Shown here: in pieces, positions 1,857-27,961 of the stretch | Numbering within the stretch: position 1 is the first letter of the stretch | How the letters are laid out: every line of letters starts with the position of its first letter | Assembly (NCBI GenBank): GCA_001780725.1 | Contig: MFIM01000001.1 | Location: forward strand, 83,642 to 147,641 | Length of the DNA stretch: 64,000 bases | Reading direction: 5' to 3' | From: Candidatus Giovannonibacteria bacterium RIFCSPLOWO2_02_FULL_45_28 | Lineage (GTDB): Bacteria; Patescibacteriota; Minisyncoccia; UBA11713; 2-01-FULL-45-33 | Program-made: the position numbers and the translations under genes | Notes under the pieces: generated by a model | The model's database searches: none | What the model was told of the DNA's origin: nothing | What the model saw: the letters and a program-made list of their open reading frames with translations, nothing else

Positions 1857-2054
1857 TTACGAGCTTATCAATTCAACAGCCCTTCTCCGATCGCACTCGT
1901 GCATAGCGTTAACAGCTATGTCAGCTAAGACTGGTTTTGATGCTTCTTTGGGCACGAGTGTTTTGAGAGTCAGAAATATAACCCTTGCCGCCATATCAAA
2001 GTTAATGCTCGCTTTCGCGGAAATCTCCAATATAAGATCGTCAAATTTTGTCAT
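1857..2054 (-). CDS. Small hypothetical protein (65 aa)
   Basis: ORF with its own downstream terminator hairpin. No recognisable motif. Confidence 0.35.
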   Translation of the reverse strand: MTKFDDLILEISAKASINFDMAARVIFLTLKTLVPKEASKPVLADIAVNAMHECDRRRAVELISS

Positions 2055-2108
2055 TGTAAAACACCCTTTTGTTAGATTGTTCTATGGCTAATGTAGCAAA
2101 TTAACTAT

Positions 2109-2200
2109 TGCTTTGTCAATACCTCCGCGCCGGTTTTTGTTACAACAATCGTATGCTCAAAATGGGCGGCGCGGGAGCCGTCACGAGTGACCCATGTCCA
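2109..2200. repeat. Degenerate duplicate of the map 3' end (direct repeat partner of 2604-2697)
   Basis: About 90 bp at ~85% identity to the 3' terminus of map. Its reverse-complement translation gives [31 protein letters not shown], a diverged version of the Map C-terminus [31 protein letters not shown]. Confidence 0.8.
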
Positions 2201-2240
2201 GCAGTTTTGACGTTTATGTTGTTAATGTTACAATCAGCTT

Positions 2241-2432
2241 ATGGAAGTCATTACTGATTTTCTTACAGATTCAGCAAAGATAGTGTTTGGCTCTGCTGTT
2301 ATCGGATTTTTCATTCCTGGCATTGTCGGACCAATTTCGCTTACCACATTTGCCGGCGGGGCCGTTGCAACCACGGCGCTTTTGACGCTAGCAACTTTAT
2401 TATCAACTAAATTTAAAAGCATAAAACCATGA
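2241..2432 (+). CDS. Hydrophobic micro-protein 1 (63 aa, predicted membrane peptide)
   Basis: First of three tiny ORFs linked by ATGA stop/start overlaps. Gly/Ala/Ile/Leu-rich sequence consistent with a single transmembrane helix. Confidence 0.35.
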   Translation: MEVITDFLTDSAKIVFGSAVIGFFIPGIVGPISLTTFAGGAVATTALLTLATLLSTKFKSIKP

Positions 2433-2518
2433 ATCCAATCGTCGTCTATATTTACGCGTTAGTAGTAGGTCTTATCGCATTTTTTATAGGCATAAAGTTA
2501 AGCCAAAAAAAGCCATGA
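2429..2518 (+). CDS. Hydrophobic micro-protein 2 (29 aa)
   Basis: ATG overlaps the stop of the preceding ORF (CCATGA). Sequence MNPIVVYIYALVVGLIAFFIGIKLSQKKP. Confidence 0.3.
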   Translation: MNPIVVYIYALVVGLIAFFIGIKLSQKKP

Positions 2519-2601
2519 GCACCGACACAATACTTTATATAATTTTCGGCGTTCTAGTAATTTTTTCATTTGCCGTAGCTTATTATTACGGCAGACAGTA
2601 A
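2515..2601 (+). CDS. Hydrophobic micro-protein 3 (28 aa)
   Basis: Again ATGA-coupled to the previous ORF. Sequence MSTDTILYIIFGVLVIFSFAVAYYYGRQ. Confidence 0.3.
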   Translation: MSTDTILYIIFGVLVIFSFAVAYYYGRQ

Positions 2602-2603
2602 TT

Positions 2604-3395
2604 CTACCACTTTGTCAATACCTCCGCCCTATTTTTTGTTACTACCACCGTATGCTCAAAATGGGCGGCGCGGGAGCCGTCGCTGGTCACCCATATCCAG
2701 CCGTCGGGAGCAATTTTTACTTTTGGACTGCCGTCGGTCGCCATTGGCTCCAATGCAATAACCATTCCCTCAACAAGTTCGGCGCCGACTCCTTTTTTTC
2801 CAAAATTCGGGATTTCCGGATCCTCGTGAACAGCACTTCCGACGCCATGCCCAACAAGCTCACGGACAACACCGAAACCCTCTTTTTCTAAAAATTGCTG
2901 AATTGCGTATCCGATATCGCCGACTCGCGCTCCCGCGCGGACTTGCGCGATGCCGATTTCCAAAGATTTTTTAGTGGCTTCAATAAGTTTGTTTGATCTG
3001 CCCCAAACCGAGTTTAGGTCACTTGTTGACCTAAACTCGGTTTGGGTCACCAAAGTAAGCGCAGTATCCGTAAACAGCCCCTCCCATTGCATCCCGATAT
3101 CCAACCCCACAACGTCCCCTGCTTTCAAAACCCTGTCCGTCGGCAACCCATGCACAACTTCGTCGTTTATAGAAACGCAAAGCGAGCCCGGATAGGGCAT
3201 CGGCGCTCCCCGAACTTTGTATCCCTTAAATGAAGGCGCGCCTCCGGCTTTTAAAATCAGCTTCTCCGCCAAATCATCCAGCTCACGCGCGGAAACTCCG
3301 GCAATCGCATGGTGTGCAACTTCCTGCAAAACGGCGGCAAGTCTCTTGCCGCCTTCCCGCAAAATCTCAAGCTCTTTTTGGTTTTTGATGATCAT
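2604..3395 (-). CDS. map: Methionine aminopeptidase type I
   Basis: 263 aa. Pita-bread fold metal ligands (D..D...H...E...E pattern: DVVGLDIG, VHGLP, HFEHTVVVT). In the canonical secY-adk-map position. Confidence 0.9.
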   Translation of the reverse strand: MIIKNQKELEILREGGKRLAAVLQEVAHHAIAGVSARELDDLAEKLILKAGGAPSFKGYKVRGAPMPYPGSLCVSINDEVVHGLPTDRVLKAGDVVGLDIGMQWEGLFTDTALTLVTQTEFRSTSDLNSVWGRSNKLIEATKKSLEIGIAQVRAGARVGDIGYAIQQFLEKEGFGVVRELVGHGVGSAVHEDPEIPNFGKKGVGAELVEGMVIALEPMATDGSPKVKIAPDGWIWVTSDGSRAAHFEHTVVVTKNRAEVLTKW

Positions 3396-3994
3396 AGCCC
3401 AACTGCTTTTACAATGTCTTGATGAACTTTTTCAACAGATTGCTCACCATTTATTTCCAAAAACTTGTGTTTTGCGCTTTTTTTATAAAATTCTATTGCC
3501 GGCACAACGCGTTTTTCGTAATAAGCCATGCGGTGCTTGATGTTTTCCGGATTGTCATCTGCCCGGCCCCTAGCAAGCATACGATCGCGCACCCACTCCG
3601 CGCTGCAATTCAGCCAAATACGAAAAACGTTTTTGCGGTCATAAAAATCTAAAATTTCATCCCAAACCTCCGCCTCTATTGCTGTGCGCGGAGTCCCGTC
3701 CGCAATGATGTGATTAGATTCCGTCACTCCATGTATTAATTCTTTTGTGAAAGCCCAAATAGCCAAAGCATCCGGCGCTTTTTCTCCCGGACCAAGAATT
3801 TTGTTTTGCAGAAACCTGGCTGTCAAAAATTCAGGATGATCAAGCAGTCCTCTCAATTGCGCACCTGTAGAAATATATAGCACGCTATTCAGTCCGCTTT
3901 TATTCTCTAACAATTTCTTTAATAATTCCGCTTGCGTCCCCTTGCCGCAGCCGGAACGCCCAATGAAAGCAAAGCTGTAAAGTGCATTACTCAT
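3392..3994 (-). CDS. adk: Adenylate kinase (P-loop NMP kinase)
   Basis: 200 aa. P-loop GRSGCGKGTQ. Sits between secY and map as in the spc operon. ATGA overlap with map. Confidence 0.8.
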   Translation of the reverse strand: MSNALYSFAFIGRSGCGKGTQAELLKKLLENKSGLNSVLYISTGAQLRGLLDHPEFLTARFLQNKILGPGEKAPDALAIWAFTKELIHGVTESNHIIADGTPRTAIEAEVWDEILDFYDRKNVFRIWLNCSAEWVRDRMLARGRADDNPENIKHRMAYYEKRVVPAIEFYKKSAKHKFLEINGEQSVEKVHQDIVKAVGL

Positions 3995-5252
3995 ACGCGC
4001 GCAAAGATAATTGGCCCTCCACCTGCTTGGCGGTTTCTAAAACAACAGAAACGACAATCAGCAAAGCCGTGCCGCCGATAGTCAAAGTGGCAATACCTGT
4101 AAAACCCTGCACGACAATCGGCAAAACCGCGACCGCGCCCAAAAAAAGCGCCCCCACGAAAGTAATGCGCGTAACAATTTTGCTTAAAAATTCCGCCGTT
4201 GAAGCGCCCGGCCTTATGCCGGGGACGAAAGCCCCGCTTTGCTGAAGATTTTTAGAAACAGCCTGTGGATCAAAAGTTACCGCCGTATAAAAATAAGTAA
4301 ATAGAAAAACTAAAATGAAATAAGCCGCCGCGTAAGCCCAGGAACTTCCCAAAAAGTTAATCACAAAAGCCGCCACCGCCCGCAAAATAGCGCTGGAAGA
4401 GGCTGTAAAAAAATTAGCAACCATTTGCGGCAAAAGCAGGATGGAAAGAGCAAAAATAATAGGAATCACTCCGGCTTGATTCACCTTAAGAGGCAGATAA
4501 GTCGTAGTGCCGCCATACATTCTCATTCCACGGATTCTTTTTGCATAATAAACGGGAATAGGCCTGTCGCCTTCGGAAATATAAACGACGGCCGCAACAG
4601 TAACAACAGCGATAACAAAAAATGAAATGAGCGTCGGCAGCTGCGACGGATCAAATGCGATTACGGTTTGCCTGAAATCGGAAGGCAGGCGCGCCACAAT
4701 ACCCGCAAAGATAAGAAGAGACACGCCGTTGCCGATTCCGTATTCAGAAATCAGCTCGCCAATCCACATAAGCAAAATTGAACCGGCGGCAACTATAATC
4801 ATGTTCCCGAATTTTTCGTAAAAGGTTAAAAATTGCAAAATTCCCTGGCGTTCCAAAATCGTCAAAAGCCCGAAGCCCTGAACCAAAGCCAACGGCACCG
4901 TGAGCATGCGCGAATACTGATTAAATTTCTGGCGGCCGGCTTCACCTTCTTCCTGTTGCAATTCTTTTAAAGCAGGAATGAGCATCGTCAGAAGCTGCAT
5001 AATGATTGATGCGGTAATGTACGGGCCGACTCCCAACATCATAATAGAAAGATTTCCCAAGGCACCGCCGGAAAAAAGGTTCAAAAGCCCGAAAAACTGG
5101 TTTGCCTCAAAAAACTGCCGCAGTTTTTCGGCATCAATCCCGGGAATAGGAACTGAAGAAATCAGCCTGAAAATGGCCAAAAAGCCCAAAACATACAAAA
5201 ATTTTCGGCGCAAATCAATATCTTTTAAAATTAGTTTAAATTTTTCCCACAT
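3987..5252 (-). CDS. secY: Preprotein translocase subunit SecY
   Basis: 421 aa, 10 predicted TM helices, SecY signature segments. Position after rplO. Confidence 0.95.
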   Translation of the reverse strand: MWEKFKLILKDIDLRRKFLYVLGFLAIFRLISSVPIPGIDAEKLRQFFEANQFFGLLNLFSGGALGNLSIMMLGVGPYITASIIMQLLTMLIPALKELQQEEGEAGRQKFNQYSRMLTVPLALVQGFGLLTILERQGILQFLTFYEKFGNMIIVAAGSILLMWIGELISEYGIGNGVSLLIFAGIVARLPSDFRQTVIAFDPSQLPTLISFFVIAVVTVAAVVYISEGDRPIPVYYAKRIRGMRMYGGTTTYLPLKVNQAGVIPIIFALSILLLPQMVANFFTASSSAILRAVAAFVINFLGSSWAYAAAYFILVFLFTYFYTAVTFDPQAVSKNLQQSGAFVPGIRPGASTAEFLSKIVTRITFVGALFLGAVAVLPIVVQGFTGIATLTIGGTALLIVVSVVLETAKQVEGQLSLRAYE

Positions 5253-5667
5253 GTTTTTTGACAGATTCCGACATCAAAATATCTTCTTCAAAGGTTAACT
5301 TTCTTGTAAGCTTTCCTGCTCCCAAAATTTTGACTTTCGGAAATTTTCCGTTTCTCGCCGCAATAAGACCGCGGTCCGCCAAAAGCTTCACAGTCACTTT
5401 TTCTCCGTCAACGAATTTTTTATCCAAACCGCCTAGATTCACCACAGCCGGCTTCATGACAAACCCGCGCCTGAACTTATAACCGCGGCGTTTGTGGATC
5501 TTCTTTATAATATCACGAATTTGCGGGCGAATCCTGCGACCGGAGCGTGATTTCTGCCCCTTAATTCCCCTGCCCGAAAATGACCCGCGCTTCCCCCCGC
5601 GGCCAATGCGTTTGTGTTTTCTCCTGTTTGATTTTAACAAATTATGAGTTTGCATAATGACAACCAT
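5236..5667 (-). CDS. rplO: 50S ribosomal protein L15
   Basis: 143 aa. N-terminal KRIGRGGKRG..SGRG Gly/Arg-rich L15 motif. Confidence 0.9.
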   Translation of the reverse strand: MVVIMQTHNLLKSNRRKHKRIGRGGKRGSFSGRGIKGQKSRSGRRIRPQIRDIIKKIHKRRGYKFRRGFVMKPAVVNLGGLDKKFVDGEKVTVKLLADRGLIAARNGKFPKVKILGAGKLTRKLTFEEDILMSESVKKHVGKI

Positions 5668-5759
5668 GCTAGCTTAAAAGGGCGCGATAGACAAGGACTT
5701 GACACAAATAAACAGGTATGCTAGCTTTAAATTGGGCTTAGATTCCTTGAAAGGAGATT

Positions 5760-6251
5760 GTGATGATGGAAGAGAACCCGCCCTCTTTTGCGGTTTTAGT
5801 TGGGATAATCGTACTCTTTGGTTTGATTCTCATGGTCCTTTTCGGGCAGTCTTCTGTTTCAGATTCTCCAGATTCGCCATTTATCAAAGACAGGTTACCA
5901 TTGTTCTTCTCACCGGCTTTTGGGGACAAAGAAGACATTTTAGCTTACATTGACCTAGATGGCGACGGGAAACACGAAACTGTGTTCGGAAGTACTGGTA
6001 GGATTCACTGGGACTATGTAGGATATAATTTGTGGATATCACCCAACGAATCAAAAACCGGGCGCCGTCTGGTTTTGCAATTTAAAAAGCCTCCGGATAG
6101 GATATGTTTTACCGATATCGACCGTGACGGTATTCTGGATTTAGTTTTGGGCGTGGATGGACACACCCATGTAGCAAGAGGTGATGGTTCGGGAAATTTT
6201 AGGAGTCCCGAACTGATCAGTACTCAGAAAAGGCGAATATGTATCTCCTAA
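5760..6251 (+). CDS. Membrane-anchored FG-GAP/VCBS-like repeat protein
   Basis: 163 aa. AGGAG Shine-Dalgarno sequence 7 nt upstream. N-terminal TM helix. Two Asp/Gly-rich Ca-binding-type repeats (DLDGDGKHE, DIDRDGILDLVLGVDGH). Confidence 0.5.
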   Translation: MMMEENPPSFAVLVGIIVLFGLILMVLFGQSSVSDSPDSPFIKDRLPLFFSPAFGDKEDILAYIDLDGDGKHETVFGSTGRIHWDYVGYNLWISPNESKTGRRLVLQFKKPPDRICFTDIDRDGILDLVLGVDGHTHVARGDGSGNFRSPELISTQKRRICIS

Positions 6252-6295
6252 TCATGCGCACCACCTTCGGGTGTGGCGCTTTTTTGTTTCAAATT

Positions 6296-6356
6296 TTTTT
6301 ATTTCCTCTCTTTCAACTTTTTCAGCGCTTCAAGGGTAGCAAGCGCGTTGGTGAGT
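6296..6356. repeat. Duplicate of the rpsE 3' end (direct repeat partner of 6966-7026)
   Basis: About 55 bp near-identical to the last 18 codons plus stop of rpsE. It differs at synonymous positions (AAA CTC vs AAG CTT). The copy forms a mini-ORF MSKLTNALATLEALKKLKERK*. Confidence 0.85.
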
Positions 6357-6722
6357 TTACTCATTGCCGCTTCGCATTCTAATCCGATGCGGAGAGAAAA
6401 CAACAATTGAGCGGCGCAAATCTTCGGTGGCAATTTCGTCTATCATCGGGCTGATCATTTTAAGCATTGCATTTACCGTAAGTTCATTTGGAAATCTCAA
6501 AATTACGATGCCGTTGTGGCTGCTGAGTGGAAATTTTGTTATATCCGCAAAACCTAAATCCGCAGTAAAAATAACTGCGTTTTTGCTTTGTGCAAATTTA
6601 AAAATTTCTTCGTCAGAGTGGCCACGAAGCCCCACATCTCTGACATCATAAACTTCGTAACCTTTCTCGCGAAAAAGTGGCGCCAATGACCTCGGCAAAT
6701 CCTCATCAACAACAACTCTCAT
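6357..6722 (-). CDS. DUF5615-type PIN-like putative toxin
   Basis: 121 aa. MRVVVDEDLP...FTADLGF pattern characteristic of DUF5615, which pairs with DUF433. Start overlaps the upstream gene's stop (ATGA). Confidence 0.55.
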   Translation of the reverse strand: MRVVVDEDLPRSLAPLFREKGYEVYDVRDVGLRGHSDEEIFKFAQSKNAVIFTADLGFADITKFPLSSHNGIVILRFPNELTVNAMLKMISPMIDEIATEDLRRSIVVFSPHRIRMRSGNE

Positions 6723-6946
6723 ACATAAGCAAGCTTTTCTTCTGCAACCAAACTCGCAGCATAGCGAAGCGCAGCCAAAATCTGATCCTTTGTAAGATCG
6801 TACTCTGTCATAATTTCTTCAAATGTCATGCCCCCAGCAATCTTTCCCACCACTAAGTCAACTGGCACTCTTGTCCCCTTAATAATCGGCTTCCCAAATT
6901 TCACATCTGGGTTTAAAACTATGCCATCTGCTATTTCTTTTACCAT
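6719..6946 (-). CDS. DUF433-type putative antitoxin
   Basis: 75 aa. GKPIIKGTRVPVDLVV...GMTFEEIMTEYDLTKDQILAALRYA matches the DUF433 consensus. Sits upstream of and overlapping the DUF5615 gene. Confidence 0.6.
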   Translation of the reverse strand: MVKEIADGIVLNPDVKFGKPIIKGTRVPVDLVVGKIAGGMTFEEIMTEYDLTKDQILAALRYAASLVAEEKLAYV

Positions 6947-6963
6947 AAATTCATTGTAACAGA

Positions 6964-7425
6964 TTATTTCCTCTCTTTCAACTTTTTCAGCGCTTCAAGG
7001 GTAGCAAGCGCGTTGGTAAGCTTGTTTTTTGTGTGAGATAAAATTTTTGCGCTGGCGTTTTTCACTCCGGCCAAAGCCAGCACAGTTCTTGCGGCCCCGC
7101 CAGCGACCAAACCTTTTCCGGCTTTGCCCGGCTTTAAAATAACTCTTGCGCTGCCGAATTTTGCGTAAACTTCATGCGGTATAGATTGTTCTTTGGTCAG
7201 CGGCACAAAAAGCATATTTTTTCTAGCCTTGCGCGCCGCTTTTTCAATGGACTGCGAAGTATCTGCGGCTTTGCCCAAACCAAAGCCAACCTTGCCTTTT
7301 TGGTCGCCCAAAACCACAGCCGCGCGGAAAGTAAAACGCCGTCCGCCCGCCATAACCCTGGCGACCCTGCGAAGATCAATTAATTTTTGTTCGTATTCGC
7401 TTTTTTGTCTTTGCTGTCTAACCAT
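6964..7425 (-). CDS. rpsE: 30S ribosomal protein S5
   Basis: 153 aa. S5 dsRBD and C-terminal domain motifs (GGRRFTFRAAVVLGDQKGKVGFGLGKA). Confidence 0.9.
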   Translation of the reverse strand: MVRQQRQKSEYEQKLIDLRRVARVMAGGRRFTFRAAVVLGDQKGKVGFGLGKAADTSQSIEKAARKARKNMLFVPLTKEQSIPHEVYAKFGSARVILKPGKAGKGLVAGGAARTVLALAGVKNASAKILSHTKNKLTNALATLEALKKLKERK

Positions 7426-14580: not shown

Positions 14581-14582
14581 TT

Positions 14583-14640
14583 ATCCTCTCACTTCCACCA
14601 AACTACCGCGGTGGCCGGGGATGGCGCCGGAGACGGCACC
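14583..14640. repeat. Duplicate of the rplC 3' end (direct repeat partner of 20095-20152)
   Basis: About 56 bp. Reverse-complement translation gives GAVSGAIPGHRGSLVEVRG*, identical to the L3 C-terminus. Only synonymous differences (CCC vs CCA, GGT vs GGC). Confidence 0.85.
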
Positions 14641-14788
14641 TTATATAGTCTTTTCTTGAGATAACTCAAATTTTTTGCAATTACAATTTTCATTTTAACA
14701 AAAATATGCGGGTGCGCGGAAAAGGGTAAGGTACTCTCTGTGAATAAAATACTTGTTGCTCTTTTTCTTTTTATTTGCTATCATTTGA

Positions 14789-15109
14789 ATGTATATGCAA
14801 ACGAAAGACATTCAAAAAATTAGAAAAGAATTGAATGATAGGAAAGCGATTCTCCGCTGCGCCAAGGAATTTAATATGGTGGGCGACCCGACGCGGCTCA
14901 AGATTTGCTATCTCTTGTGTCGGCATAAAGAGCTCGCGGTGGGCGAGATTTCAGAAATTATCGGCGTTTCTATTTCGGCTATTTCTCATACGCTCAAAAA
15001 GTTGCAAAAGGCTGGCATGGTTGAAAACCGCCGAGAATTCCGAACGGTCTATTACAAACTTAAACAAACGCCCCTTGCCGATATGCTCAAGGAGCGGCTT
15101 ACAACATAA
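14789..15109 (+). CDS. ArsR/SmtB-family metalloregulatory transcriptional repressor
   Basis: 106 aa. Winged HTH. CYLLC motif in the position of the ArsR metal-binding CVC site. Stop lies 4 nt before the MerA-like start. Confidence 0.75.
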   Translation: MYMQTKDIQKIRKELNDRKAILRCAKEFNMVGDPTRLKICYLLCRHKELAVGEISEIIGVSISAISHTLKKLQKAGMVENRREFRTVYYKLKQTPLADMLKERLTT

Positions 15110-15113
15110 CTTT

Positions 15114-16517
15114 ATGCAAAAATTTGACCTTATCATCATTGGTGGCGGTGCAGGGGCGTTTGCAGCGGCAATCCGCGCTAACGAGCTTAAAGCAAAAACT
15201 GCGCTCGTGAACGCTGGGCTTCCGCTCGGCGGCACTTGTGTCAATGTCGGGTGCGTCCCGTCAAAAACACTTCTCTATGCCGGTGAAATTTTGCACCACT
15301 CAAAACATCACGGCGTTGCCGGTGTTGAGCTTGAAGTGAAAAATTTTGATTTTCAGAAAGTCGTGCAAGACGAACTTTCTCTAGTGGAAAAATTACGCCA
15401 AGAAAAATACGAGAAAGTGCTAAAAAATTTAGAGTATGTAACGGCAATCGAGGGAAAAGCAAAATTTATTTCTCAAAATGAGGTGGAGGTGAACGGCGAA
15501 AAATTGAGTGCGGAAAAATTTATCATTGCCGCAGGCTCAACCGCCAGTGTACCGCCGATTGAGGGAATACGGGAAGCTGGTTTCATCACCCATATCGAAG
15601 CTCTTAAAATGCCAAAACAACCGAAAGAGTTGGTTGTCATCGGTGCGGGGCCTCTTGGTTTGGAATTTGCTCAAATGTTTGCGCGTTTTGGCACAAAAGT
15701 AACCATTTTACAGCGCGGCGATTCAATTTTTCCGCACTCTGAAAAGGCACTCACCGACCGCCTCGCCGAGATACTTGCAAAAGAAGGAATTACTATCAAA
15801 ACAAATGTTGAGGTAAAAAGCGCGCGCAAAGAGAGCGATAAAAGAATTGTTTCGTATCAAATCGGCGAGGCGCAAGAAGAAGTTTCCGCTGATGAAATAC
15901 TTTTGGCGGCAGGCAAAACGCCAAACACACAGGGACTTGGCCTTGATATCGCTGGCATTGAAATTGACAAGCGGCAAGCTGTTGCTGTCAATCAAAATTT
16001 TCAAACATCCAATAAGAACATCTTTGCGGTGGGCGATGTTACAAACGGTCCCTTGCGGCTTGAGCCGACCGCTGGACGCGAAGGCACGCTTGCCGCGGAA
16101 AACGCGCTCAAAGACACAACACTTTCCATTGATTACAACGCTGTACCTTACACCATTTTTACCGATCCCCAGCTTGCTGGTGTCGGCTTTACCGAAGACG
16201 AGCAAATGAAGCAGGTGGGCGTTTGCGCGTGCCGCACGGTTTCGTTTGAAAATGTGCCGAAAGCAATCATCATGCGCCGCACCGAAGGACTTATCAAAAT
16301 GGCGATTCATCCGCAAACAAAACAAATTTTGGGCGTTCACATTCTCGCACCAAACGCCGGGGAACTTATCGCCGAAGCGATGATGCTGGTCAAGAACGAA
16401 AACACGATTGACGATGTGGTGAACTCCTTGCCAATGTTCCCGACGCTATCCGAGGCGATAAAAATTGCCGCATTGTCATTTACCAAAGACATTTCTAAAT
16501 TAAGCTGTTGCGTATGA
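15114..16517 (+). CDS. merA: Mercuric reductase core (MerA-like class I pyridine nucleotide-disulfide oxidoreductase, no NmerA domain)
   Basis: 467 aa. FAD site GGGAGAFAAA. Redox-active GGTCVNVGCVPSK identical to the Tn501 MerA active site. C-terminal vicinal Cys pair ...KDISKLSCCV, as in MerA (KQLSCCAG). TPNT..GL and FTDPQ segments are shared with MerA. The 93-codon upstream extension of the ORF call (14835) is an overlapping-frame artefact. Confidence 0.8.
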   Translation: MQKFDLIIIGGGAGAFAAAIRANELKAKTALVNAGLPLGGTCVNVGCVPSKTLLYAGEILHHSKHHGVAGVELEVKNFDFQKVVQDELSLVEKLRQEKYEKVLKNLEYVTAIEGKAKFISQNEVEVNGEKLSAEKFIIAAGSTASVPPIEGIREAGFITHIEALKMPKQPKELVVIGAGPLGLEFAQMFARFGTKVTILQRGDSIFPHSEKALTDRLAEILAKEGITIKTNVEVKSARKESDKRIVSYQIGEAQEEVSADEILLAAGKTPNTQGLGLDIAGIEIDKRQAVAVNQNFQTSNKNIFAVGDVTNGPLRLEPTAGREGTLAAENALKDTTLSIDYNAVPYTIFTDPQLAGVGFTEDEQMKQVGVCACRTVSFENVPKAIIMRRTEGLIKMAIHPQTKQILGVHILAPNAGELIAEAMMLVKNENTIDDVVNSLPMFPTLSEAIKIAALSFTKDISKLSCCV

Positions 16518-17023
16518 ATAAACTTCAAGAAGTATATAGTGCAGTTAAGCAAGTGCTTGGAGAACAAATGTATGGTTTTATCGTTCTTTCGTTTGCGCTT
16601 TTATTTTTTGGATTGTTTGTTTTTATTCCTGTTGCCACGACTCCCGGCAATACGCTTGCGTTTCAACTATCAATTTTCCGCGTGCAAGATTACTTCTTGA
16701 TGGTATTTCTCGCTTTTTTGGTGGGGCTTAATTTTTCAATGAATATCTATGTTTGGAGAAAACGAAGACAATCGGTCAATATTTCTAAATCTGCGGCAAG
16801 CGGCACAGCGGCAGGATTCGGAGGAGCTTTTGCCGCAATTGTGGGAACCGCTACTTGCGCGTCGTGTCTTGCTTCTCTATTCGGTATTATGGGTTTGGGA
16901 ATCGGAAGTGTTGCGTTTGTTTTGAAGTATCAAACCCTCTTTCTTCTTGGCGCAATAGCCCTTGTGGTTATTTCCCTTTACTTTACCGCTAGAAAAATAA
17001 ACAGAGTATGCAATTCATGTTAA
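16508..17023 (+). CDS. Integral membrane protein with CxxC and C-terminal CxxC motifs (candidate metal transport component)
   Basis: 171 aa, ~4 TM helices. TATCASCL within a TM segment and a CNSC C-terminus. Start overlaps the MerA-like stop. Confidence 0.4.
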   Translation: MRMNKLQEVYSAVKQVLGEQMYGFIVLSFALLFFGLFVFIPVATTPGNTLAFQLSIFRVQDYFLMVFLAFLVGLNFSMNIYVWRKRRQSVNISKSAASGTAAGFGGAFAAIVGTATCASCLASLFGIMGLGIGSVAFVLKYQTLFLLGAIALVVISLYFTARKINRVCNSC

Positions 17024-17038
17024 AATGACATTAAATCT

Positions 17039-17632
17039 ATGGATAGAAATTTATTTCTTATCGCCGCTTTAATCATTGTAGCTGGAGGTGTCTATTTTTA
17101 TATCACCAACCAACTCGGCAAATCCCTGACAAACAATACTGCCTATAACGAAACTGGTACGGTTCAAACGGCATTAGCCGCTAAATTTGATTATTTATCT
17201 CAAAACGGAAACTCTTCTTGTTCCGCTTCGTTTAAGGAATCAATTCCGTCGTTACCCGCTGGAACGCGGCTTCAAGGTTCTTGTTGTTCGCCAATGGACT
17301 TTCATCGGTATACTGAACAGGTTGAAGGATTAAAAAAGTATTCGGACATTCCAGAAATTCCACCAGACCCGTATGATATTGAGGCAGGATTGGCTAAAAA
17401 ATTGTTGGGCTACTATGATGTGGAACTCACGCCCGAAAAACAGAAAGCATACGACTACGCTATGCTTAACTCAAACGAGAAAGGACCTTGCTGCTGCAAA
17501 TGCTGGCGTTGGTATGTCTACGGCGGATTAGGTAAATACCTTATTAAAAATCATGGCTTCACCGGCGAGCAAGTAACTGAGGTATGGAATCTCTCTGATG
17601 GTTGTGGCGGCGACAACGAGCATACTCATTAA
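17039..17632 (+). CDS. N-terminally membrane-anchored Cys-rich extracytoplasmic protein
   Basis: 197 aa. One N-terminal TM helix. Clusters SCS, GSCCSP, GPCCCKCWRW, DGCGGDNEHTH. Confidence 0.4.
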   Translation: MDRNLFLIAALIIVAGGVYFYITNQLGKSLTNNTAYNETGTVQTALAAKFDYLSQNGNSSCSASFKESIPSLPAGTRLQGSCCSPMDFHRYTEQVEGLKKYSDIPEIPPDPYDIEAGLAKKLLGYYDVELTPEKQKAYDYAMLNSNEKGPCCCKCWRWYVYGGLGKYLIKNHGFTGEQVTEVWNLSDGCGGDNEHTH

Positions 17633-17647
17633 AACTTAAGTAGAGTT

Positions 17648-18622
17648 ATGACATCTAAAATTCGTAACAGCTTAATCATTTTTTCTTTCCTTCTCCTCTC
17701 GATCACCATCATCGGCATTTTTTGGCTTGTTACCACGCCCGGAGCGCAAGCTGGCCTCATTTTCGCCTACGCAGCCGGACTTTCCATGATTTTTCTTCCT
17801 TGCACCCTGCCTTTAGTATTCGTCATTGTGCCTCTGGCAATGAAGCAATCACCGCTCAAAGGGCTTACGATGGCATTACTTTTCGGATTGGGACTTGCCA
17901 TTACGCTTAGTATCTACGGCGCGGCTGTCGCTTGGGTAGGCGGATATATTGGCATGAACGCCATTATTCGCTGGATGTTTGGAATTGCCGGAGCAATGGC
18001 ATTTGTTTTTGGACTCTCCGAATTAAAACTTCTTGCCTTGCGCCTGCCTTTTATGGCAAAAGTGCTGCCGACTTCGCTTCAAAAAGGCGGCAATTACTCA
18101 AAATCGTTTTTCATGGGCCTTTTCTTGGGCAATGCCGGCGTGGGCTGTCCCAATCCCGCTTTCTATGTACTACTTACATATATTGCAACCGTAGGAACAG
18201 TAAGCGACGGTGTTCTTTTGGGAGTGGTGCATGGCTTGGGAAGAGCCACGCCACTTATCTTTCTTGTCATCCTTGCCATTCTTGGCATCAACACCATGAA
18301 TTGGGTCAGCCGCTCGCAGGTAAAAGTTGAACGGTTTATGGCGTGGGGGTTGGTCGGCATAGGCGCATATCTTTTTCAATATCTGCCGTTTAAGATGGCA
18401 TTTTGGGAGGGCTCAATCTTTCATGTTATCTGGAACAACATCGTGAGCAAAACCTTGCCGAGCATAGCCGAAAGCGAGAGAATTGAAGAACTGCTGAACA
18501 TTCAAGGAGGCACCGCCACCATTTTGCCGTGGGTGTTTATTGGGCTTATGGTCGGAGCGGTGATTATTTGGGACGCGTTTGTTCAACGTAAAAAGTTATC
18601 ACAAAATCAAGTTATACAATGA
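17648..18622 (+). CDS. CcdA/DsbD-family thiol-disulfide transporter (cytochrome c biogenesis-type membrane protein)
   Basis: 324 aa polytopic. The two conserved TM cysteines (FLPCTLP and GVGCPNP) typical of the DsbD beta-domain/CcdA family. Confidence 0.7.
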   Translation: MTSKIRNSLIIFSFLLLSITIIGIFWLVTTPGAQAGLIFAYAAGLSMIFLPCTLPLVFVIVPLAMKQSPLKGLTMALLFGLGLAITLSIYGAAVAWVGGYIGMNAIIRWMFGIAGAMAFVFGLSELKLLALRLPFMAKVLPTSLQKGGNYSKSFFMGLFLGNAGVGCPNPAFYVLLTYIATVGTVSDGVLLGVVHGLGRATPLIFLVILAILGINTMNWVSRSQVKVERFMAWGLVGIGAYLFQYLPFKMAFWEGSIFHVIWNNIVSKTLPSIAESERIEELLNIQGGTATILPWVFIGLMVGAVIIWDAFVQRKKLSQNQVIQ

Positions 18623-18798
18623 ACACAATGTTTTCAATAATCCAAGTCGCTTACGCCCACGAAGAAGGGGCGAGTACCGCAACAGCCGACAACACCCTCG
18701 GTCCCATTTTAGCGTTGGTTATTATTATCTTGGCCATAGTCGTAGCCAAGCGCATTAAAAAGATTAATAAAGAAAATCATTATGAACAAAGAAATTAA
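18619..18798 (+). CDS. Small membrane protein (59 aa)
   Basis: Not in the ORF track. ATG overlaps the CcdA-like stop (ATGA). Hydrophilic N-terminus followed by one TM helix (ILALVIIILAIVVA). Confidence 0.3.
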   Translation: MNTMFSIIQVAYAHEEGASTATADNTLGPILALVIIILAIVVAKRIKKINKENHYEQRN

Positions 18799-19048
18799 AA
18801 TGACCCTCGTTACCCGCGAAGGGTGCGTTCATTGCGCGCAGACCAAAGAAATTCTTAAAAAGATACAGCCCGAGTATCCCGAACTTGCGGTGGAAGAAAT
18901 AGATATGACCACGCCCCAGGGGCAAGAACTTATCAGTAAATACGGAATTATGTCGAGTCCGGGGATTATTATTAACGGCGAGCTGTTCTCTATAGGCGGA
19001 ACTACGGAAAAGGAATTAAGAGAGAAATTTGTCGCATTAAGGAGTTAA
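18782..19048 (+). CDS. Glutaredoxin/thioredoxin-fold CxxC protein
   Basis: 88 aa. CVHC redox motif near the N-terminus. Glutaredoxin-like YruB/NrdH architecture. True start may be the internal Met at ~18800. Confidence 0.7.
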   Translation: MNKEIKMTLVTREGCVHCAQTKEILKKIQPEYPELAVEEIDMTTPQGQELISKYGIMSSPGIIINGELFSIGGTTEKELREKFVALRS

Positions 19049-19425
19049 ATTTTGTAGCCCGCCAAAAAATCCGCCAGCCCAAGCGAGGGCGCGGCGGAAG
19101 GAGGGTGTGGGAGAATTTCGCCGCACCCGAGCGGAAACATCAGCACGCCTCCGCCTGCTCGTTTAGAGCAGAACGCCGAAAGCAAAATTTTCTTTTCCTT
19201 TAGAAGAAAAAATTGGTGGCGCGCGCAAAAAAAGAATCGTAAAGAAAATTTTGCTTGAGGCGTAGCCCCGCCTTTGGCGGGGCGCGGAGGCGTTCGTCAG
19301 AGTAAGACATTTTTGCTAAAATAGGTTCGAGCGTGGTTGTATAGATACACCATGTTATAATAAAAACATCGGCTCGAACCATATTTTAATTTTGGGGGAA
19401 GAAAATTTTTTTTCCATGTTAGTTA

Positions 19426-19851
19426 TCAAACCTTAATTGGGATAATTTCAAAAGTATTATGGTCGCGTTCAAACTTTATTCGGTAATTATCAAAAAAACC
19501 GATTTGCCCCAATAAAGCATGAACTGCCAGGTTGGGCACAAAACCAACTTCAACTTTTACTTTGTCCGTGAATTCTTTGATTTTGATATCAACGTCAATA
19601 AAATGTGTTTCCATCGCTTTGCCATCTATGCCCGTTACGCTCTCTTTCTTTTTGGCTTTGTCCAGATTTATACCAACGTATTTTGCAAATTCAGCGTTTA
19701 TTAAAATATTATCTGCCCCAGAATCCACCAGCGCTCCAAAAATAGAAACATTCTTTAAAGGTCCAAACAACTCAATCTCTATAATTGGTCGTCTCCTGTG
19801 AGGAGCTGTTGGTTTTGATGGATCAAATACAGCAGAGTACTGATATTTCAT
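19426..19851 (-). CDS. Retropepsin-like (clan AA) aspartic protease
   Basis: 141 aa. ALVDSGADNILI catalytic motif. Confidence 0.6.
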   Translation of the reverse strand: MKYQYSAVFDPSKPTAPHRRRPIIEIELFGPLKNVSIFGALVDSGADNILINAEFAKYVGINLDKAKKKESVTGIDGKAMETHFIDVDIKIKEFTDKVKVEVGFVPNLAVHALLGQIGFFDNYRIKFERDHNTFEIIPIKV

Positions 19852-20075
19852 AAACTCGAAGGCGCCAAATTTGCTCCGAGCGGTAATACCTTCGAAAACG
19901 CCACTCTGCTTTGAAGCACACTGTCTATTTTAGAAGCCGTTTCCTCAAGAGTTTCTCCACTAGCTATAATCTTTGTTCGGTCAGGAGAAAGCGCCACCCA
20001 TTTATTTTCGTATGGCTTAAGAATTGAGCTTAAATCGGGCATTTTTACAATGTTTTCTTCTTGTGTTTTTGACAT
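19848..20075 (-). CDS. Small DUF5678-like protein partnered with the retropepsin-like gene
   Basis: 75 aa. KWVALSPDRTKIIASGETLEE pattern. Overlaps the downstream protease gene start. Confidence 0.45.
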   Translation of the reverse strand: MSKTQEENIVKMPDLSSILKPYENKWVALSPDRTKIIASGETLEETASKIDSVLQSRVAFSKVLPLGANLAPSSL

Positions 20076-20094
20076 ATGCTTAAATATAACACAC

Positions 20095-20682
20095 TTATCC
20101 TCTCACTTCCACCAAACTGCCGCGGTGGCCTGGGATGGCGCCGGAGATGGCCATAAGATTTTTTTCGGGAATGATTTTGATGATTTTGAGATTGCTGACG
20201 GTGACGCGTTCCGCACCCATGTGCCCGGCCATGCGCATGCCTTTTAAAACTCTTTGCGGCCAAGTTGCGCCGATTGATCCCGGCTCGCGCTCGGAATGTT
20301 TTTGTCCGTGAGTTCTAGGTCCGCCGTGGAAACCATGACGTTTTACAACGCCCTGAAAACCTTTGCCTTTTGAAACGCCACTGACATTTACAAAGTCGCC
20401 CTCCTCAAAAGCGGTTGCCTCAATTTTGTCGCCCACATTTAAAGCGCTGGTTTTAAACTCGCGAAAATACTGAAAATTTCCCAATTTTTTCTGCGGCTTT
20501 TCTACGTTTTTTCCCTTTTTCGCGCTAAACCCGACCTGTACGGCAACGTATCCGTCCTTTTCTTCAGATTTTTTTTGCGTAACAAAAATGGGGCCGGCTT
20601 CCAGCCAAGTAACCGGTTGAACCCGTCCATTACCGTCAAAAATTTGCGACATCTCAATTTTTCTCGCCAAAATAAATTTCAT
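20095..20682 (-). CDS. rplC: 50S ribosomal protein L3
   Basis: 195 aa. L3 family. Directly downstream of rpsJ. Confidence 0.95.
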   Translation of the reverse strand: MKFILARKIEMSQIFDGNGRVQPVTWLEAGPIFVTQKKSEEKDGYVAVQVGFSAKKGKNVEKPQKKLGNFQYFREFKTSALNVGDKIEATAFEEGDFVNVSGVSKGKGFQGVVKRHGFHGGPRTHGQKHSEREPGSIGATWPQRVLKGMRMAGHMGAERVTVSNLKIIKIIPEKNLMAISGAIPGHRGSLVEVRG

Positions 20683-22222: not shown

Positions 22223-22313
22223 AAATTTATTTAAAAATTAGCGCTTATAAAAGCCAATACGCATTTTCAGCGTATAATCCGTATATTATAGGATGATAAA
22301 ACCCCTGTCAAGG

Positions 22314-22342
22314 CGCAAAAAAACCCCGACACAAGGTCGGGG
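22314..22342 (-). terminator. Rho-independent terminator (CCCCGAC-ACAAG-GTCGGGG plus U-run on minus strand)
   Basis: 7-bp GC stem preceded on the plus strand by AAAAAAA. Downstream of the small minus-strand ORFs and upstream of tuf. Confidence 0.55.
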
Positions 22343-22370
22343 CGAGGCGGCTAAACTAGCCGCAGGTTTC

Positions 22371-22547
22371 TTACAACATTATTAATTTAACGATAAGGAA
22401 CAAAATGTAAGCTATTGATAATAGGGATAAAAACCAGGAAAATTTGGCAATCCAAACCAGATGTCTCTCCAGCCAAAATCTTTGTGGAACAACCGCCCGA
22501 TAAACCGTCATCAAAATAGCTCCGAAAATTCCAGCAAGGAACATCAT
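22371..22547 (-). CDS. Small membrane protein (58 aa)
   Basis: Not in the ORF track. Two predicted TM helices. ATG overlaps the stop of the 68-aa ORF upstream. Followed by a terminator. Confidence 0.35.
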   Translation of the reverse strand: MMFLAGIFGAILMTVYRAVVPQRFWLERHLVWIAKFSWFLSLLSIAYILFLIVKLIML

Positions 22548-22750
22548 CCTTGTTCACCCCCTTGATGCGTTGTTAGAAAAGTTTTTTCTTCGGCAGAAAG
22601 CTTTTTGAAAATTGCCGACAGTTTTTGCCAAATCTCTTTGGCTTCCGGATCGTTTTGACGCCTCTGCTTTTCAAAAACTTTTAGAATAAACTGAAGCCGT
22701 AAAAATTCTTCTAATTTCTTGCTCTGCCCGTACTCAACGCCTTTGGGCAT
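22544..22750 (-). CDS. Hypothetical protein (68 aa)
   Basis: Charged helical ORF. No recognised motif. Confidence 0.3.
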   Translation of the reverse strand: MPKGVEYGQSKKLEEFLRLQFILKVFEKQRRQNDPEAKEIWQKLSAIFKKLSAEEKTFLTTHQGGEQG

Positions 22751-22758
22751 AAATCACC

Positions 22759-23019
22759 TCACTGCCATCGAGACATCACTCCAGCATTTCCAGTCACGCT
22801 CACTACCACCTGTCCATAATGATCGTCAATGCGCACCACTCCGCCACCGCGAGAGATAAGAATGGCGGCATTAACATCTTTTGGAACGATTATCTTCGTG
22901 CCATCGGTAAATTCCATACCGACAACGTTTCCGTCGCTAAGCTCAAGCGATTTTATAGTCCTCACTATTCTACCTCCTATTCTAAACCAAAGCTTATCAC
23001 TAAACCGGCAGGTCGTCAA
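22759..23019 (-). CDS. Hypothetical protein (86 aa)
   Basis: ORF with no recognised motif. Confidence 0.3.
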   Translation of the reverse strand: MTTCRFSDKLWFRIGGRIVRTIKSLELSDGNVVGMEFTDGTKIIVPKDVNAAILISRGGGVVRIDDHYGQVVVSVTGNAGVMSRWQ

Positions 23020-23234
23020 GCCCCACTTCTTCGTCTAGATTTTCTGCAAGCAGTTTGTCAGACAAAATTTTTTCTTCTTGTTGTAATTCTATATTTTCGT
23101 TTTCCATAAATTATACCAATTCTAAAATCTTTGAACGAAGCTTGCAAGCATTCCCGTGCTTCAACAAGCCAAGATAAGAATTTAGAGTATCCGCCATATT
23201 ATTTTCTTGTAATCTTCTCATCATCCGCCTTTTT

Positions 23235-23540
23235 GTGCTTGTCCGCAAAACTCATAGACATTCTTTAGGCCAGCGCATTGACGCGTTTTTTATTGAAATT
23301 ATGGAAGCGATTGCGGTTGCGAGTTTTCTTTCGCGAGAAGAAAAACTGCCTTATATCAGATTGGCTATGCGAAAAACGGACGCGCTGAAAATACTGCTTA
23401 TGGTACTTTGGGAAACCAAATCTTTGGACAATAAAAAATATGCCGCGTTGTCGATCAAAATAATCGAAATTGGAAAAATGCTGGGCGGATGGAGCGGACA
23501 GATACAAAAACAAAACTCTCCCAAAACGGGAGAGAAATGA
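23235..23540 (+). CDS. avd: Four-helix-bundle protein of the 23S rRNA IVS / DGR accessory variability determinant (Avd) family
   Basis: 101 aa (start may be further upstream at a non-ATG codon). LVRKTHRHSLGQRIDAF... and C-terminal IIEIGKMLGGWSGQ resemble Bordetella phage bAvd (IAEVGRILGSWIAR). Confidence 0.65.
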   Translation: MLVRKTHRHSLGQRIDAFFIEIMEAIAVASFLSREEKLPYIRLAMRKTDALKILLMVLWETKSLDNKKYAALSIKIIEIGKMLGGWSGQIQKQNSPKTGEK

Positions 23541-23546
23541 AAAGAG

Positions 23547-23673
23547 TTGCCGAAGCGGAGAGCGGGATTGTTAGAATACCAGCTGTAGCCCAACCAGCAC
23601 CAGAGCAACACGACCTCGTCGCCGTACTCGCAGAGATACGGGACATTCAGGTTGCCGTTGCGGTTCTGCACGA
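23547..23673 (-). repeat. DGR template repeat (TR)
   Basis: 127 bp homologous to the 3' end of the target gene (24052-24178). Carries adenines (AAC codons, sense = minus strand) at 11 of the 13 positions where the two copies differ. Confidence 0.75.
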
Positions 23674-24047: not shown

Positions 24048-24710
24048 CTACTTGCTGAAGCGGAGAGCGGGATCGTTAGAATACCAGCTGCAGCCCAACC
24101 AGTACCAGAGCAACACGACCCCGCCGCCGTACCCGCAGAGACACGGGACATCCAGGCGGCCGTAGCGGTCCTGCACGACCGACTTCCACCCAAACACCGT
24201 CTTGCCTGCATATAACTTGCGGAACACAGCAATGCCCTTGGTTTGGATGGCCAGGAGGTCGGCCAGTCCGAGGCAATCGGCAAGAGCATTGTCCTTCTGA
24301 AGATGCTTGTAAATCGCGTTGCCGATCGCAACTCCCGTTTTCTGGTCATTGTGGAGCCAAAGCCCGACCGCGGCGTTGAGGTTGTATTCGGCGGGTCCAA
24401 CGAGCTCCAATTCGGGATGCATCACTTTCTTCATCCAGCCGGGATAGCTCGGTTTGACCGAGCGGTCCACGCTGATAATGAAGTCAAGTAACACCTCGGG
24501 AGCGGGGACAACATCTCCAACGGTTACTAGGCGCTCAATCGGCTTGATCTCGCTGAAACCGTTGAGTACGGCCTTGATGGTCCCGAGATCATACTTCCTT
24601 AATTTGGTTACCTCCTCGACACTAAATCCCGCCTTTTCCAGAGCATCGGCCAGTTGGTTCATATGGCCGATAGAATACAGAGTAGACATAATCTTCCTCC
24701 CTTTGGACAT
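24048..24710 (-). CDS. DGR target (variable) protein, 220 aa
   Basis: C-terminal 42 codons form the variable repeat ...QDRYGRLDVPCLCGYGGGVVLLWYWLGCSWYSNDPALRFSK. The TR encodes N at the diversified positions. Confidence 0.65.
   Translation of the reverse strand: MSKGRKIMSTLYSIGHMNQLADALEKAGFSVEEVTKLRKYDLGTIKAVLNGFSEIKPIERLVTVGDVVPAPEVLLDFIISVDRSVKPSYPGWMKKVMHPELELVGPAEYNLNAAVGLWLHNDQKTGVAIGNAIYKHLQKDNALADCLGLADLLAIQTKGIAVFRKLYAGKTVFGWKSVVQDRYGRLDVPCLCGYGGGVVLLWYWLGCSWYSNDPALRFSK
24052..24178 (-). repeat. DGR variable repeat (VR) at the target gene 3' end
   Basis: Pairs with the TR. Substitutions are confined almost entirely to TR adenine positions (AAC to GAC, TAC, CGC). Confidence 0.75.
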
Positions 24711-27012: not shown

Positions 27013-27043
27013 AAAAATTAAAAGATAGTTTATAGATTACTAT

Positions 27044-27103: not shown

Positions 27104-27640
27104 TTAAAAAGGCCTGCCTGTTCTTAACTTGCCTTTAGTAAAAGAGTCTACTATAATCTTCCCGTTTTTTTCATGGCCATGGATTATCGCTGGTTTTATT
27201 ACTTCGAGGACAACACCCCCCCGCTCACTTGCCTTAAAAAACCTGTTTAATGCGGTATCAAAATTGTCCCGTAGTAAAGGCCTGATTTCCCAACCGCCCT
27301 CAACCTTTTCGAGATAATATATCCCCCCCCTAATTTCTGGGCGGTAATCATGTTCCAATATTTTCAGTTCCATGGCATAACTATCGGCATACTCACCTTC
27401 TTTTCTCACAATGAACGCAGTATCGTCGTTTGGATATTCAAAGCCCTTTTCAAGCTCACTTACATTCTCTTCTAAACCTTTGGCGGGCTCGCCAATACTC
27501 TCTTCGCTGCGCCCGTCTCTAAATCGTTGGATTGCTTCTTGGTATTTAGCAACAATGCGTTCAGCTTCTTCCAACTCGGTCTCGGATTTTATTTCCAAGT
27601 CTTCTTTGCTGGGAAACCCGCTTTCGAATTTATTTACCAC
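27104..27640 (-). CDS. Hypothetical acidic protein (178 aa)
   Basis: ORF with its own terminator. No recognised motif. Inserted between rpsG and fusA. Confidence 0.4.
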   Translation of the reverse strand: MVNKFESGFPSKEDLEIKSETELEEAERIVAKYQEAIQRFRDGRSEESIGEPAKGLEENVSELEKGFEYPNDDTAFIVRKEGEYADSYAMELKILEHDYRPEIRGGIYYLEKVEGGWEIRPLLRDNFDTALNRFFKASERGGVVLEVIKPAIIHGHEKNGKIIVDSFTKGKLRTGRPF

Positions 27641-27676: not shown

Positions 27677-27961
27677 CTACTTAGATTTTTTATAAATCTC
27701 GTGCGTGCCGATGTTTAAATAAACTACAACATTATCATTCACAAAATAAAAATGAATGCGGTAGTCTTTATTTACCGAATATGCCCAGTCGTTCTTAAGC
27801 TTTCCGCCAAGTTTATGAGTTTCTAAAGAAGGATGAAATGCGTTTTGCCGAAAAATCTTATCTTTGTTTGCCGCTAATTTTTGGACGACTTTAGGCAACC
27901 GCTCAAAATTCTTTTCAAAAAGAGAGGTGTGTTCTACCCCGAAGATCCTCCGTGGTGTCAT
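27677..27961 (-). CDS. RelE/ParE-family type II toxin
   Basis: 94 aa. C-terminal WAYSVNKDYRIHFYFVNDNVVVYLNIGTHEIYKK matches the RelE/ParE fold consensus. Confidence 0.6.
   Translation of the reverse strand: MTPRRIFGVEHTSLFEKNFERLPKVVQKLAANKDKIFRQNAFHPSLETHKLGGKLKNDWAYSVNKDYRIHFYFVNDNVVVYLNIGTHEIYKKSK

Follow-up and report, generated by a model that had tools for sequence, protein, structure and literature searches.

What does it mean when the last bases of a housekeeping gene recur further downstream, on the far side of accessory genes? This question is raised by a stretch of 64,000 nucleotides (nt), called here the window, from a groundwater (Rifle) Candidatus Giovannonibacteria, a member of the Candidate Phyla Radiation (CPR) and of the Parcubacteria, in which the str/S10/spc ribosomal super-operon lies on the minus strand. 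Small accessory cassettes are found directly after three genes of this region, map, rpsE and rplC, and each cassette is then followed by a displaced second copy of the last 57–100 bases of the gene. The first-pass annotation of the window had proposed a recurrent insertion signature at these 3′ ends, brought about by a family of integrative cassettes. Our analysis confirmed the signature: the duplicated gene ends are a real and recurrent insertion scar, far beyond chance.

Three duplicated gene ends

Loci of relatives were collected via SecY, giving 63 genome loci and 80 metagenome loci, which are labelled by an L and a number in what follows. The significance of each repeat was assessed by Smith-Waterman alignment of the last 100 nt of the gene against its downstream gap, with shuffled sequences for comparison, and by self-blastn. 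Formal alignment bore out all three pairs, with scores of 68 for map (shuffle maximum 14), 56 for rpsE (shuffle maximum 15) and 51 for rplC, the shuffle maxima over the three tests being 14–16, and with self-blastn E values of 1e-24 for map and 1e-23 for rpsE. Assemblies from NCBI, ENA and JGI, made with different assemblers, were compared as well, and 24 contigs were read for each of the three proteins. The insertion structures were present in 24 of 24 contigs each time and were identical across the three sources. An assembly artefact is ruled out by the agreement of independent assemblies and by recurrence in several species; moreover, the exact repeat at rpsE is 54 nt long, which is not a k-mer length. 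Pfam confirmed Peptidase_M24, Ribosomal_S5, DUF433, DUF5615/PIN_10 and FG-GAP in the region. Rfam gave no hit in 1–30 kb of the window and the repeats contain no known RNA element or tRNA, the sole tRNAs lying at 32–34 kb.

At rpsE (6964..7425), the resident 3′ end (6964..7023, minus strand) is repeated at 6299..6358 on the same strand, with 58 of 60 positions identical, of which 54 form an unbroken run that begins at the stop codon. The only two differences, AAG/AAA and CTT/CTC, are synonymous, as the first-pass annotation had it. Between the copies lies a cargo (6357..6946, minus strand) composed of a DUF433 antitoxin-like gene (6719..6946) and a DUF5615/PIN-like toxin gene (6357..6722), both of which score above the Pfam gathering scores (PF04255, 77.4 bits; PF18480, 76.3 bits). 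By family criteria this cargo fits a predicted DUF433/DUF5615 toxin-antitoxin (TA) pair. It resembles other type II pairs of this kind in its two Pfam matches, its 4-nt gene overlap and the antitoxin coming first. Unlike them, it sits directly after rpsE, has the −35 of its promoter in the coding end of that gene, and its toxin is decayed in the sister species L004. The promoter-like site, a consensus match only, spans 6981..6953 with a −35-like hexamer in the last rpsE codons, an arrangement kept in L004 and L067. Outside the window’s own cluster, the DUF5615 protein has only one close homologue (80%), which occupies the corresponding rpsE site of L067, and all others reach at most 55% identity; a widespread, near-identical mobile TA cassette is thereby ruled out. 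Beyond the distal copy, a native-like flank (5760..6298, plus strand) holds a bidirectional terminator-like hairpin (6257–6275) and an FG-GAP gene (5760..6251, plus strand), after which rplO, secY, adk and map follow. Between the rpsE copy and rplO, the FG-GAP gene represents an insertion of its own, present only in the species of the window. At its place L004 and L069 have an unrelated gene for a 157-amino-acid membrane protein. The gene rpmD (L30) is absent between rpsE and rplO (5668–6963), as expected for CPR.

At map (2604..3395, minus strand), the repeat pairs 2111–2205 with 2610–2704 over 95 nt at 86% identity, or 2105–2205 with 2604–2704 when the stop codons are included. The distal copy (2105..2205, minus strand) consists of 31 codons and a stop, its translation agrees with the one given by the first-pass annotation, and its last codons hold a −35-like TTGACA. 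The cargo in between (2207..2601, plus strand) starts with a promoter-like site (2207–2234), followed by three small genes running from 2241 to 2601, convergent with map: pepA (2241..2432), pepB (2429..2518) and pepC (2515..2601), encoding small hydrophobic (membrane) peptides. All three are kept in L069, with pepC 96% identical at the amino acid level. The open reading frames (ORFs) and Pfam agree with the cargos first proposed for map and rpsE. After the distal map copy, a native-type spacer (about 2059–2104, minus strand), with homology to those that follow the map ends of L069, leads to orf65 (1857..2054, minus strand), a GT2 glycosyltransferase gene and galT. A putative promoter of orf65 (2119..2090), again a consensus match only, has its −35 inside the distal map copy. 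When compared with L005, whose site is empty, the window has a separate insertion of about 296 nt (roughly 1804–2099), in which orf65 is included.

The same pattern at rplC (20095..20682, minus strand) was upheld as well. The resident 3′ end (20095..20151, minus strand) recurs at 14581..14637 (minus strand) with 54 of 57 positions identical, and the distal copy is followed by the native rplC–rplD intergenic flank, so that rplC, a 5.5-kb island and rplD succeed one another along the minus strand. The island (14638..20094) comprises a DUF5678-like gene and retropepsin-like protease pair, an ArsR-type regulator, a MerA-like oxidoreductase, a DsbD-like membrane protein and a glutaredoxin-like gene, and it contains no integrase. 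For comparison, the usual gaps throughout Parcubacteria are about 3–30 nt between rplC and rplD and about 0–20 nt between rpsE and rplO.

Polarity, age and distribution of the copies

Which of the two ends is the original one? The first-pass annotation had taken the distal map copy for the C-terminus of a foreign Map, and the comparison with relatives reverses this. The distal copy is the displaced old native end together with its native downstream flank, and the gene-attached end belongs with the cargo, because the native flank follows the distal copy at all three genes and, for map, the distal copy also keeps the clade-consensus residues WTW, TRDG and TKxG. The gene-attached map end (2604..2704, minus strand) differs at these places from all relatives, reading WIW, TSDG and NR. 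Together with 13 nt beyond it, the distal map copy aligns to L005, in which the GT2 gene directly follows map. The rpsE copy and its flank align to the resident rpsE end and flank of L010, L011 and L058. At rplC, the copy and flank are 88% identical to the resident end and flank of L004, and the copies of the window, L006 and L058 have the flank that follows the resident rplC in L011 and L007, whose sites are empty. No clear donor of the resident map end of the window emerged from a 96-nt identity matrix. In addition, adk and map share only 55% and 65% amino acid identity with L004, against 94% for the adjacent secY (window 2604–3994 compared with L004 and L069); this mosaic indicates that the operon tail was replaced by recombination with a more distant lineage.

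A 45-nt near-perfect palindrome lies in frame inside map (about 3001–3050), adding roughly ...TQTEFRSTSDLNSVWG... to it. The palindrome is missing from map of L005, L006 and L011, and the alignments break exactly at that point.

Empty sites are known in related species of Giovannonibacteria at map, rpsE and rplC, and the direct junctions that were sought in relatives were found: in L005 and L072, rpsE is directly followed by rplO and map by the GT2 gene. Further empty sites occur at map in L058/L070 and L077, and at rpsE in L011 and L074. Elsewhere the same junctions are occupied by other cargos, namely downstream of map by HicBA (L010, L011), orf69 and HicBA (L004/L069), two small peptides (L006) or ruvX (L007, L008), and downstream of rplC by orf123 (L058) or two small ORFs (L006). 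Gene-end duplicates accompany map in L011 and L004/L069, rpsE in L004 and L067, and rplC in L006 and L058. No homology was detected among the three rplC cargos (window, L006, L058). The rplC island itself is confined to the species of the window, L004 having neither the island nor the duplicate. As a whole, the cargos are mutually unrelated and have no common end motif, which speaks against the family of cassettes that had been suggested.

The most elaborate structure is found in L069, where an array with three map ends is arranged as resident end, orf69 and HicBA, copy 1, orf61 and pepC-B-A, copy 2, orf203. The peptide cassette of the window, its map copy and about 50 nt of flank are colinear with the distal unit of this array over 549 nt at 72% identity. 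The map copies of L069 stay homologous for 50–60 nt past the stop codon, into a promoter- and ribosome-binding-site-like spacer. The conserved anchor is repeated at the head of the displaced fragments, and the most distal of the three ends is the most decayed.

The insertions at map and rpsE are old, not fresh integrations. Both junctions of the DUF433/DUF5615 insertion, left and right, coincide in the window, in L004/L069 (in which the toxin is decayed) and in L067/L068, and the peptide cassette with its map copy is common to the window and L069. Because these junctions and this cassette are shared, both events predate the split from a sister species that is about 82–85% identical in nucleotides of conserved genes. 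A comparison of the sister taxa L067 and L006, which are about 90% identical, is instructive. L006 is empty at rpsE. L067 has the TA block in place of 99 nt, one breakpoint lying 20 nt ahead of the rpsE stop codon and the other at the start of rplO; the distal rpsE copy of L067 resembles those of the window and L004, not the end found in L006. The TA block was therefore either transferred or lost through recombination in the genes on its two sides.

The distal copies have had different fates. An internal stop interrupts the map copy of L011, the stop is lost from the most distal map end of L069, the rpsE copy of L004 and the rplC copy of L058, the rpsE copy of L067 is barely recognisable, and L010 corresponds to L011 without the map copy. 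Within genomes, the two rpsE ends agree at 54 of 54 positions in the window and at 42 of 54 in L004, and orthologous copies between genomes agree at 37 of 54. The copies of L004 and L067 also have derived bases in common that the window copy lacks. In L006 and L058, the resident rplC end and its copy carry the same species-specific variants. By our own arithmetic, the chance of 54 identities in 54 positions is about 1.5e-4 at a divergence of at least 15%. The identity seen in the window, as judged from these alignments, must be due to recent gene conversion, because the orthologous copies are decayed and the copies within a genome are more alike than those between genomes.

Outside the operon, the unrelated contig L159 (1302–2086) has the 3′ end of ftsE (1302–1333) duplicated at 2044–2075, over 32 nt with 94% identity. 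The two ftsE copies bracket a distantly related DUF5678/retropepsin-like (aspartyl-protease) pair, right before ftsX, and a DUF433/DUF5615 pair follows ftsX.

In other Parcubacteria, dispersed repeat elements of 80–200 nt populate several intergenic spacers of the ribosomal operon, namely in L006, L028, L038, L041, L033, L037, L043, L049, L024 and L026, with up to 30 pairwise hits in L006. The other long direct repeats in operons of relatives are not gene-end duplicates; they are such dispersed intergenic repeats or diversity-generating retroelements (DGRs).

Origin of the scars

The reading that we favour, with slightly better than even confidence, is that the scars arose by a 3′-end displacement (insertion-duplication) that needs no integrase, is anchored in the conserved gene ends and is spread by homologous recombination. 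Incoming DNA with the conserved 3′ part of one of the three genes, and whatever lies behind it, would recombine with the resident gene through that end. A linear fragment could do so by homology-facilitated illegitimate recombination (HFIR), a circularised one by a Campbell-type single crossover. Such DNA may plausibly have entered by natural transformation, because competence and recombination genes are reported from Patescibacteria, as is frequent transfer of ribosomal genes among them (PMC12455944). In the window, RuvA, RuvB, a 5′–3′ exonuclease and a PilB-like (pilus) ATPase are encoded. What is seen at the three loci is the outcome: the gene ends in the copy that travels with the cargo, and the original last 57–100 nt with their native flank are pushed distal to it. 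Afterwards the distal copy, which has no coding role, decays or is deleted in some lineages and is overwritten by gene conversion in others, as at rpsE of the window. Arrays such as that of L069 result from repeated rounds or from unequal homologous exchange between genomes with different cargos, and whole blocks, as between L067 and L006, travel between lineages via recombination in flanking genes.

Such a process would have consequences for the cassettes. Each would gain two homology arms, on the left the gene as it precedes the boundary and on the right the distal copy. RecA-type recombination alone could then insert the cassette into a naive relative that has this boundary, or let it pop out without a scar. 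If one ancient duplication per gene served as the right-hand arm, homologous double crossovers would recreate an identical boundary in each naive genome and lead to arrays. The gene end could also supply a −35-like element to the promoter of the follower, favouring insertions that duplicate the end over those that split it; in fact, the −35-like hexamers inside the gene ends suggest a possible reason why end-duplicating insertions are tolerated.

The closest parallel known to us is found in the effector-immunity arrays of Rhs, contact-dependent inhibition (CDI) and type VI secretion system (T6SS) loci, in which 3′ ends are displaced, as proposed, via HFIR (Jackson 2009; Kirchberger 2017, PMC5361080). 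As in these arrays, a conserved stretch serves as the anchor of the insertion, the former 3′ end comes to lie further downstream with a piece of the conserved sequence, and the displaced end retains its native downstream context, which is found at map, rpsE and rplC alike. Successive events likewise build arrays that are later moved by homologous recombination, with no integrase. The ends differ in nature, being here the conserved C-termini of Map, S5 and L3 and not polymorphic toxin tips with a cognate immunity gene; the cargo consists of separate accessory genes (TA pairs, small peptides, a redox/metal island) and not of a new C-terminal domain, and the sites lie within a CPR ribosomal operon. 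A second parallel is Campbell-type insertion-duplication, in which circular DNA with a short homologous fragment integrates, and which is the basis of insertion-duplication mutagenesis in naturally transformable bacteria. There too the insert ends up between two direct repeats, each with the length of the homologous fragment, and the process is RecA-dependent and reversible between the repeats. Unlike in mutagenesis, the event here would be natural and the fragment would end exactly at the stop codon, leaving the gene intact; a circular intermediate was not observed.

Several observations weigh against this displacement. The origin event itself was not observed, and neither a circular or excision junction nor an empty allele within the population was found in the 24 contigs per gene. 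recA and comEC were not seen within the window, which is only the available part of the genome. Two of the five junction insertions of the window (rpsG–fusA and fusA–tuf) have no duplicate. Flanking repeats occur at one of six other DUF433/DUF5615 loci, which rules them out as a general trait of such loci. The promoter-like hexamers that straddle the gene ends are predictions, and the promoter roles given to them rest on consensus matches only. Most of all, the left boundary of the duplication is sharp and constant across lineages with unrelated cargos: −57, −57 and −54 nt at rplC for three unrelated cargos, and about −99 in three copies of map. A constant boundary means that random illegitimate joints are insufficient, and that either one ancient duplication per gene with subsequent turnover of the cargo or a site-specific step is needed. 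Extended decayed homology upstream of the repeat boundaries was not detected at any locus, except for a marginal case at L011 map (P=0.05).

The alternative that survives best, which we nevertheless regard as unlikely, is that the cassettes are degenerate site-specific integrative elements, similar to cis-mobilizable elements (CIME), in which a tyrosine integrase acting in trans, from another place in the genome or from a transient element, recognised a core in the gene 3′ end, an attP mimic rebuilt the gene, attL/attR repeats were left behind and tandem accretion followed. Phage 21 and e14 integrate site-specifically at the 3′ end of icd. Streptococcal integrative and conjugative elements (ICEs) at rplL, rpsI and rpmG are flanked by direct repeats of 12–54 bp of the exact gene 3′ end (PMC4701971), to which the repeat sizes of the window come close. 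Such ICEs, integrative and mobilizable elements (IMEs) and prophages have in common with the present cassettes an element-borne copy that rebuilds the gene, ribosomal protein genes as targets and a possible tandem accretion. Direct repeats of the gene 3′ end flank each element here, the boundary is constant per gene despite different cargos, the L069 array has three copies, and empty sites exist in relatives. A single ancient duplication spread through homologous recombination would equally make the boundaries coincide. No integrase was found in any of the seven distinct cargos, in keeping with the first-pass annotation, and no recombinase among 30 large ORFs of 27–64 kb of the window scanned with Pfam. 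The cargos also differ from such elements in having no excisionase or transfer genes, in being as small as about 0.4–0.7 kb, in their mid-operon targets and in repeats of up to about 100 nt. Three unrelated targets would demand three specificities. The cargos show no shared end motif or hairpin, and with neither an attC-type site nor intI they do not qualify as an integron. The insertions are old and fixed, no excision variant appeared in the contigs read, and the empty sites are in other species only. Finally, in L069 the repeat homology extends beyond the stop codon into the native spacer, which would not be expected of an attP mimic and points to homologous chromosomal donors. Homology past the stop codon, unrelated cargos with no end motifs, mid-operon targets, three unrelated target sequences and the lack of an integrase thus favour recombination over an integrase. 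Site-specific integration, which had been put forward at first, is not required; homology past the stop, gene conversion and block transfer point to homologous recombination.

Rather improbable, in our view, is an in-situ illegitimate insertion with a long target duplication, made by template switching or staggered-break repair, with neither a homologous anchor nor a donor end. Here selection would keep those end duplications that overlap the promoter or the ribosome-binding site of the downstream essential gene. That the map and rpsE ends contain −35-like hexamers, closely followed by −10 boxes, is in line with such selection, and so is the distal ftsE copy of L159, which carries the junction to ftsX. 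The unrelated cargos and the many junction insertions lacking any duplicate would also fit. Yet this leaves unexplained the identical boundaries across lineages with different cargos, the fact that the divergent map end is the gene-attached one and not the distal one, and the hybrid TA promoter of the window, L004 and L067, which links the cargo with an rpsE end of its own. Moreover, homologous recombination is active at the repeats, as seen from gene conversion and block transfer. As to decayed gene-end copies at the junction insertions with no repeat, none that was significant was found (L010 and L058 at rpsE; L004, L007 and L011 at rplC; L006, L007, L008, L010 and L074 at map; rpsG–fusA and fusA–tuf in the window).

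A template/variable pair of a DGR can be dismissed as an origin of the map, rpsE and rplC repeats and is, like an artefact of assembly, extremely improbable, since their mismatches are not adenine-specific, housekeeping genes are targeted, a reverse transcriptase (RT) is lacking and the structures are reproduced in independent assemblies of several species, even though a genuine DGR-type pair with an adjoining bAvd gene exists in the window and DGRs lie downstream of map in other Parcubacteria (L030, L047).

Neighbouring elements and meaning for the CPR

That DGR-like module (window 23235–24710) deserves a description of its own. The 3′ end of a gene for 220 amino acids (24048..24710, minus strand) is repeated at 23547–23673 (against 24052–24178), over 127 nt with 90% identity, and in our own count from the alignment about 11–12 of the 14 internal mismatches fall at adenines of the copy. 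A bAvd-type four-helix-bundle gene (23235..23540, plus strand) adjoins the repeat, and no RT-sized ORF was found between tuf and fusA. DGRs 3′ of map occur elsewhere: L030 (13032–15591) has a target, a template repeat (TR), avd and an RT-like ORF with a YCDD motif, and L047 (6202–7558) has only an Asn-rich TR-like repeat downstream of map. The contig L155 (1–2300, compared with window 22223–24921) differs at strain level upstream of tuf: a ParE-like toxin gene and two small ORFs take the place of the DGR-like module, and from just upstream of tuf onward the contig is 99.95% identical to the window.

The gap between rpsG and fusA (27013–28189) holds an ORF of 69 amino acids, a HigB-like toxin gene (27677..27961) and an ORF of 178 amino acids (27104..27640), and no gene-end duplicate. 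Contig L153 does not have this insertion; it is 77% identical to the window upstream of fusA and 99.9% downstream, and it represents either a recombinant strain or an assembly chimera. Further along, a palindromic element of about 75 nt (GAAGTCCGACTTC ... GAAGTCGGACTTC) lies in frame inside uvrB and inside an ORF of 289 amino acids (43873–43949 and 45686–45762). Its core is also found in a Mur ligase ORF (40097–40133) and at 54845–54857, with 14 strand matches against 0.06 expected.

For annotation, these repeats carry a warning in both directions. A direct repeat of a gene 3′ end is no proof of an island driven by an integrase, nor is it always an insertion scar, as the DGR repeat of the window demonstrates.

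What appears to be new here is a 3′-end displacement, or insertion-duplication, in the ribosomal operon of a CPR bacterium, which resembles the displacement known from Rhs, CDI and T6SS loci and mimics the att scars of ICEs. A literature search found no prior description of such gene-end scars in CPR. Perhaps, and this we put forward only tentatively, the duplicated gene end is a portable attachment site needing no recombinase of its own, at which cassettes home, pop out, stack and swap their cargo by RecA-type recombination. Such cassettes may be integron-like units with no integrase in the ribosomal operon of naturally competent CPR, whose gene ends would also provide the −35 element for both the cargo and the downstream gene. 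Despite tiny genomes in which few mobile elements can be recognised, CPR/Patescibacteria do exchange genes. The scars show a route by which accessory genes can enter the most conserved operon, and stay there, without disrupting it, and if the duplicates act as homology arms, transformation and homologous recombination would be a simple route for the spread of cassettes among these bacteria.

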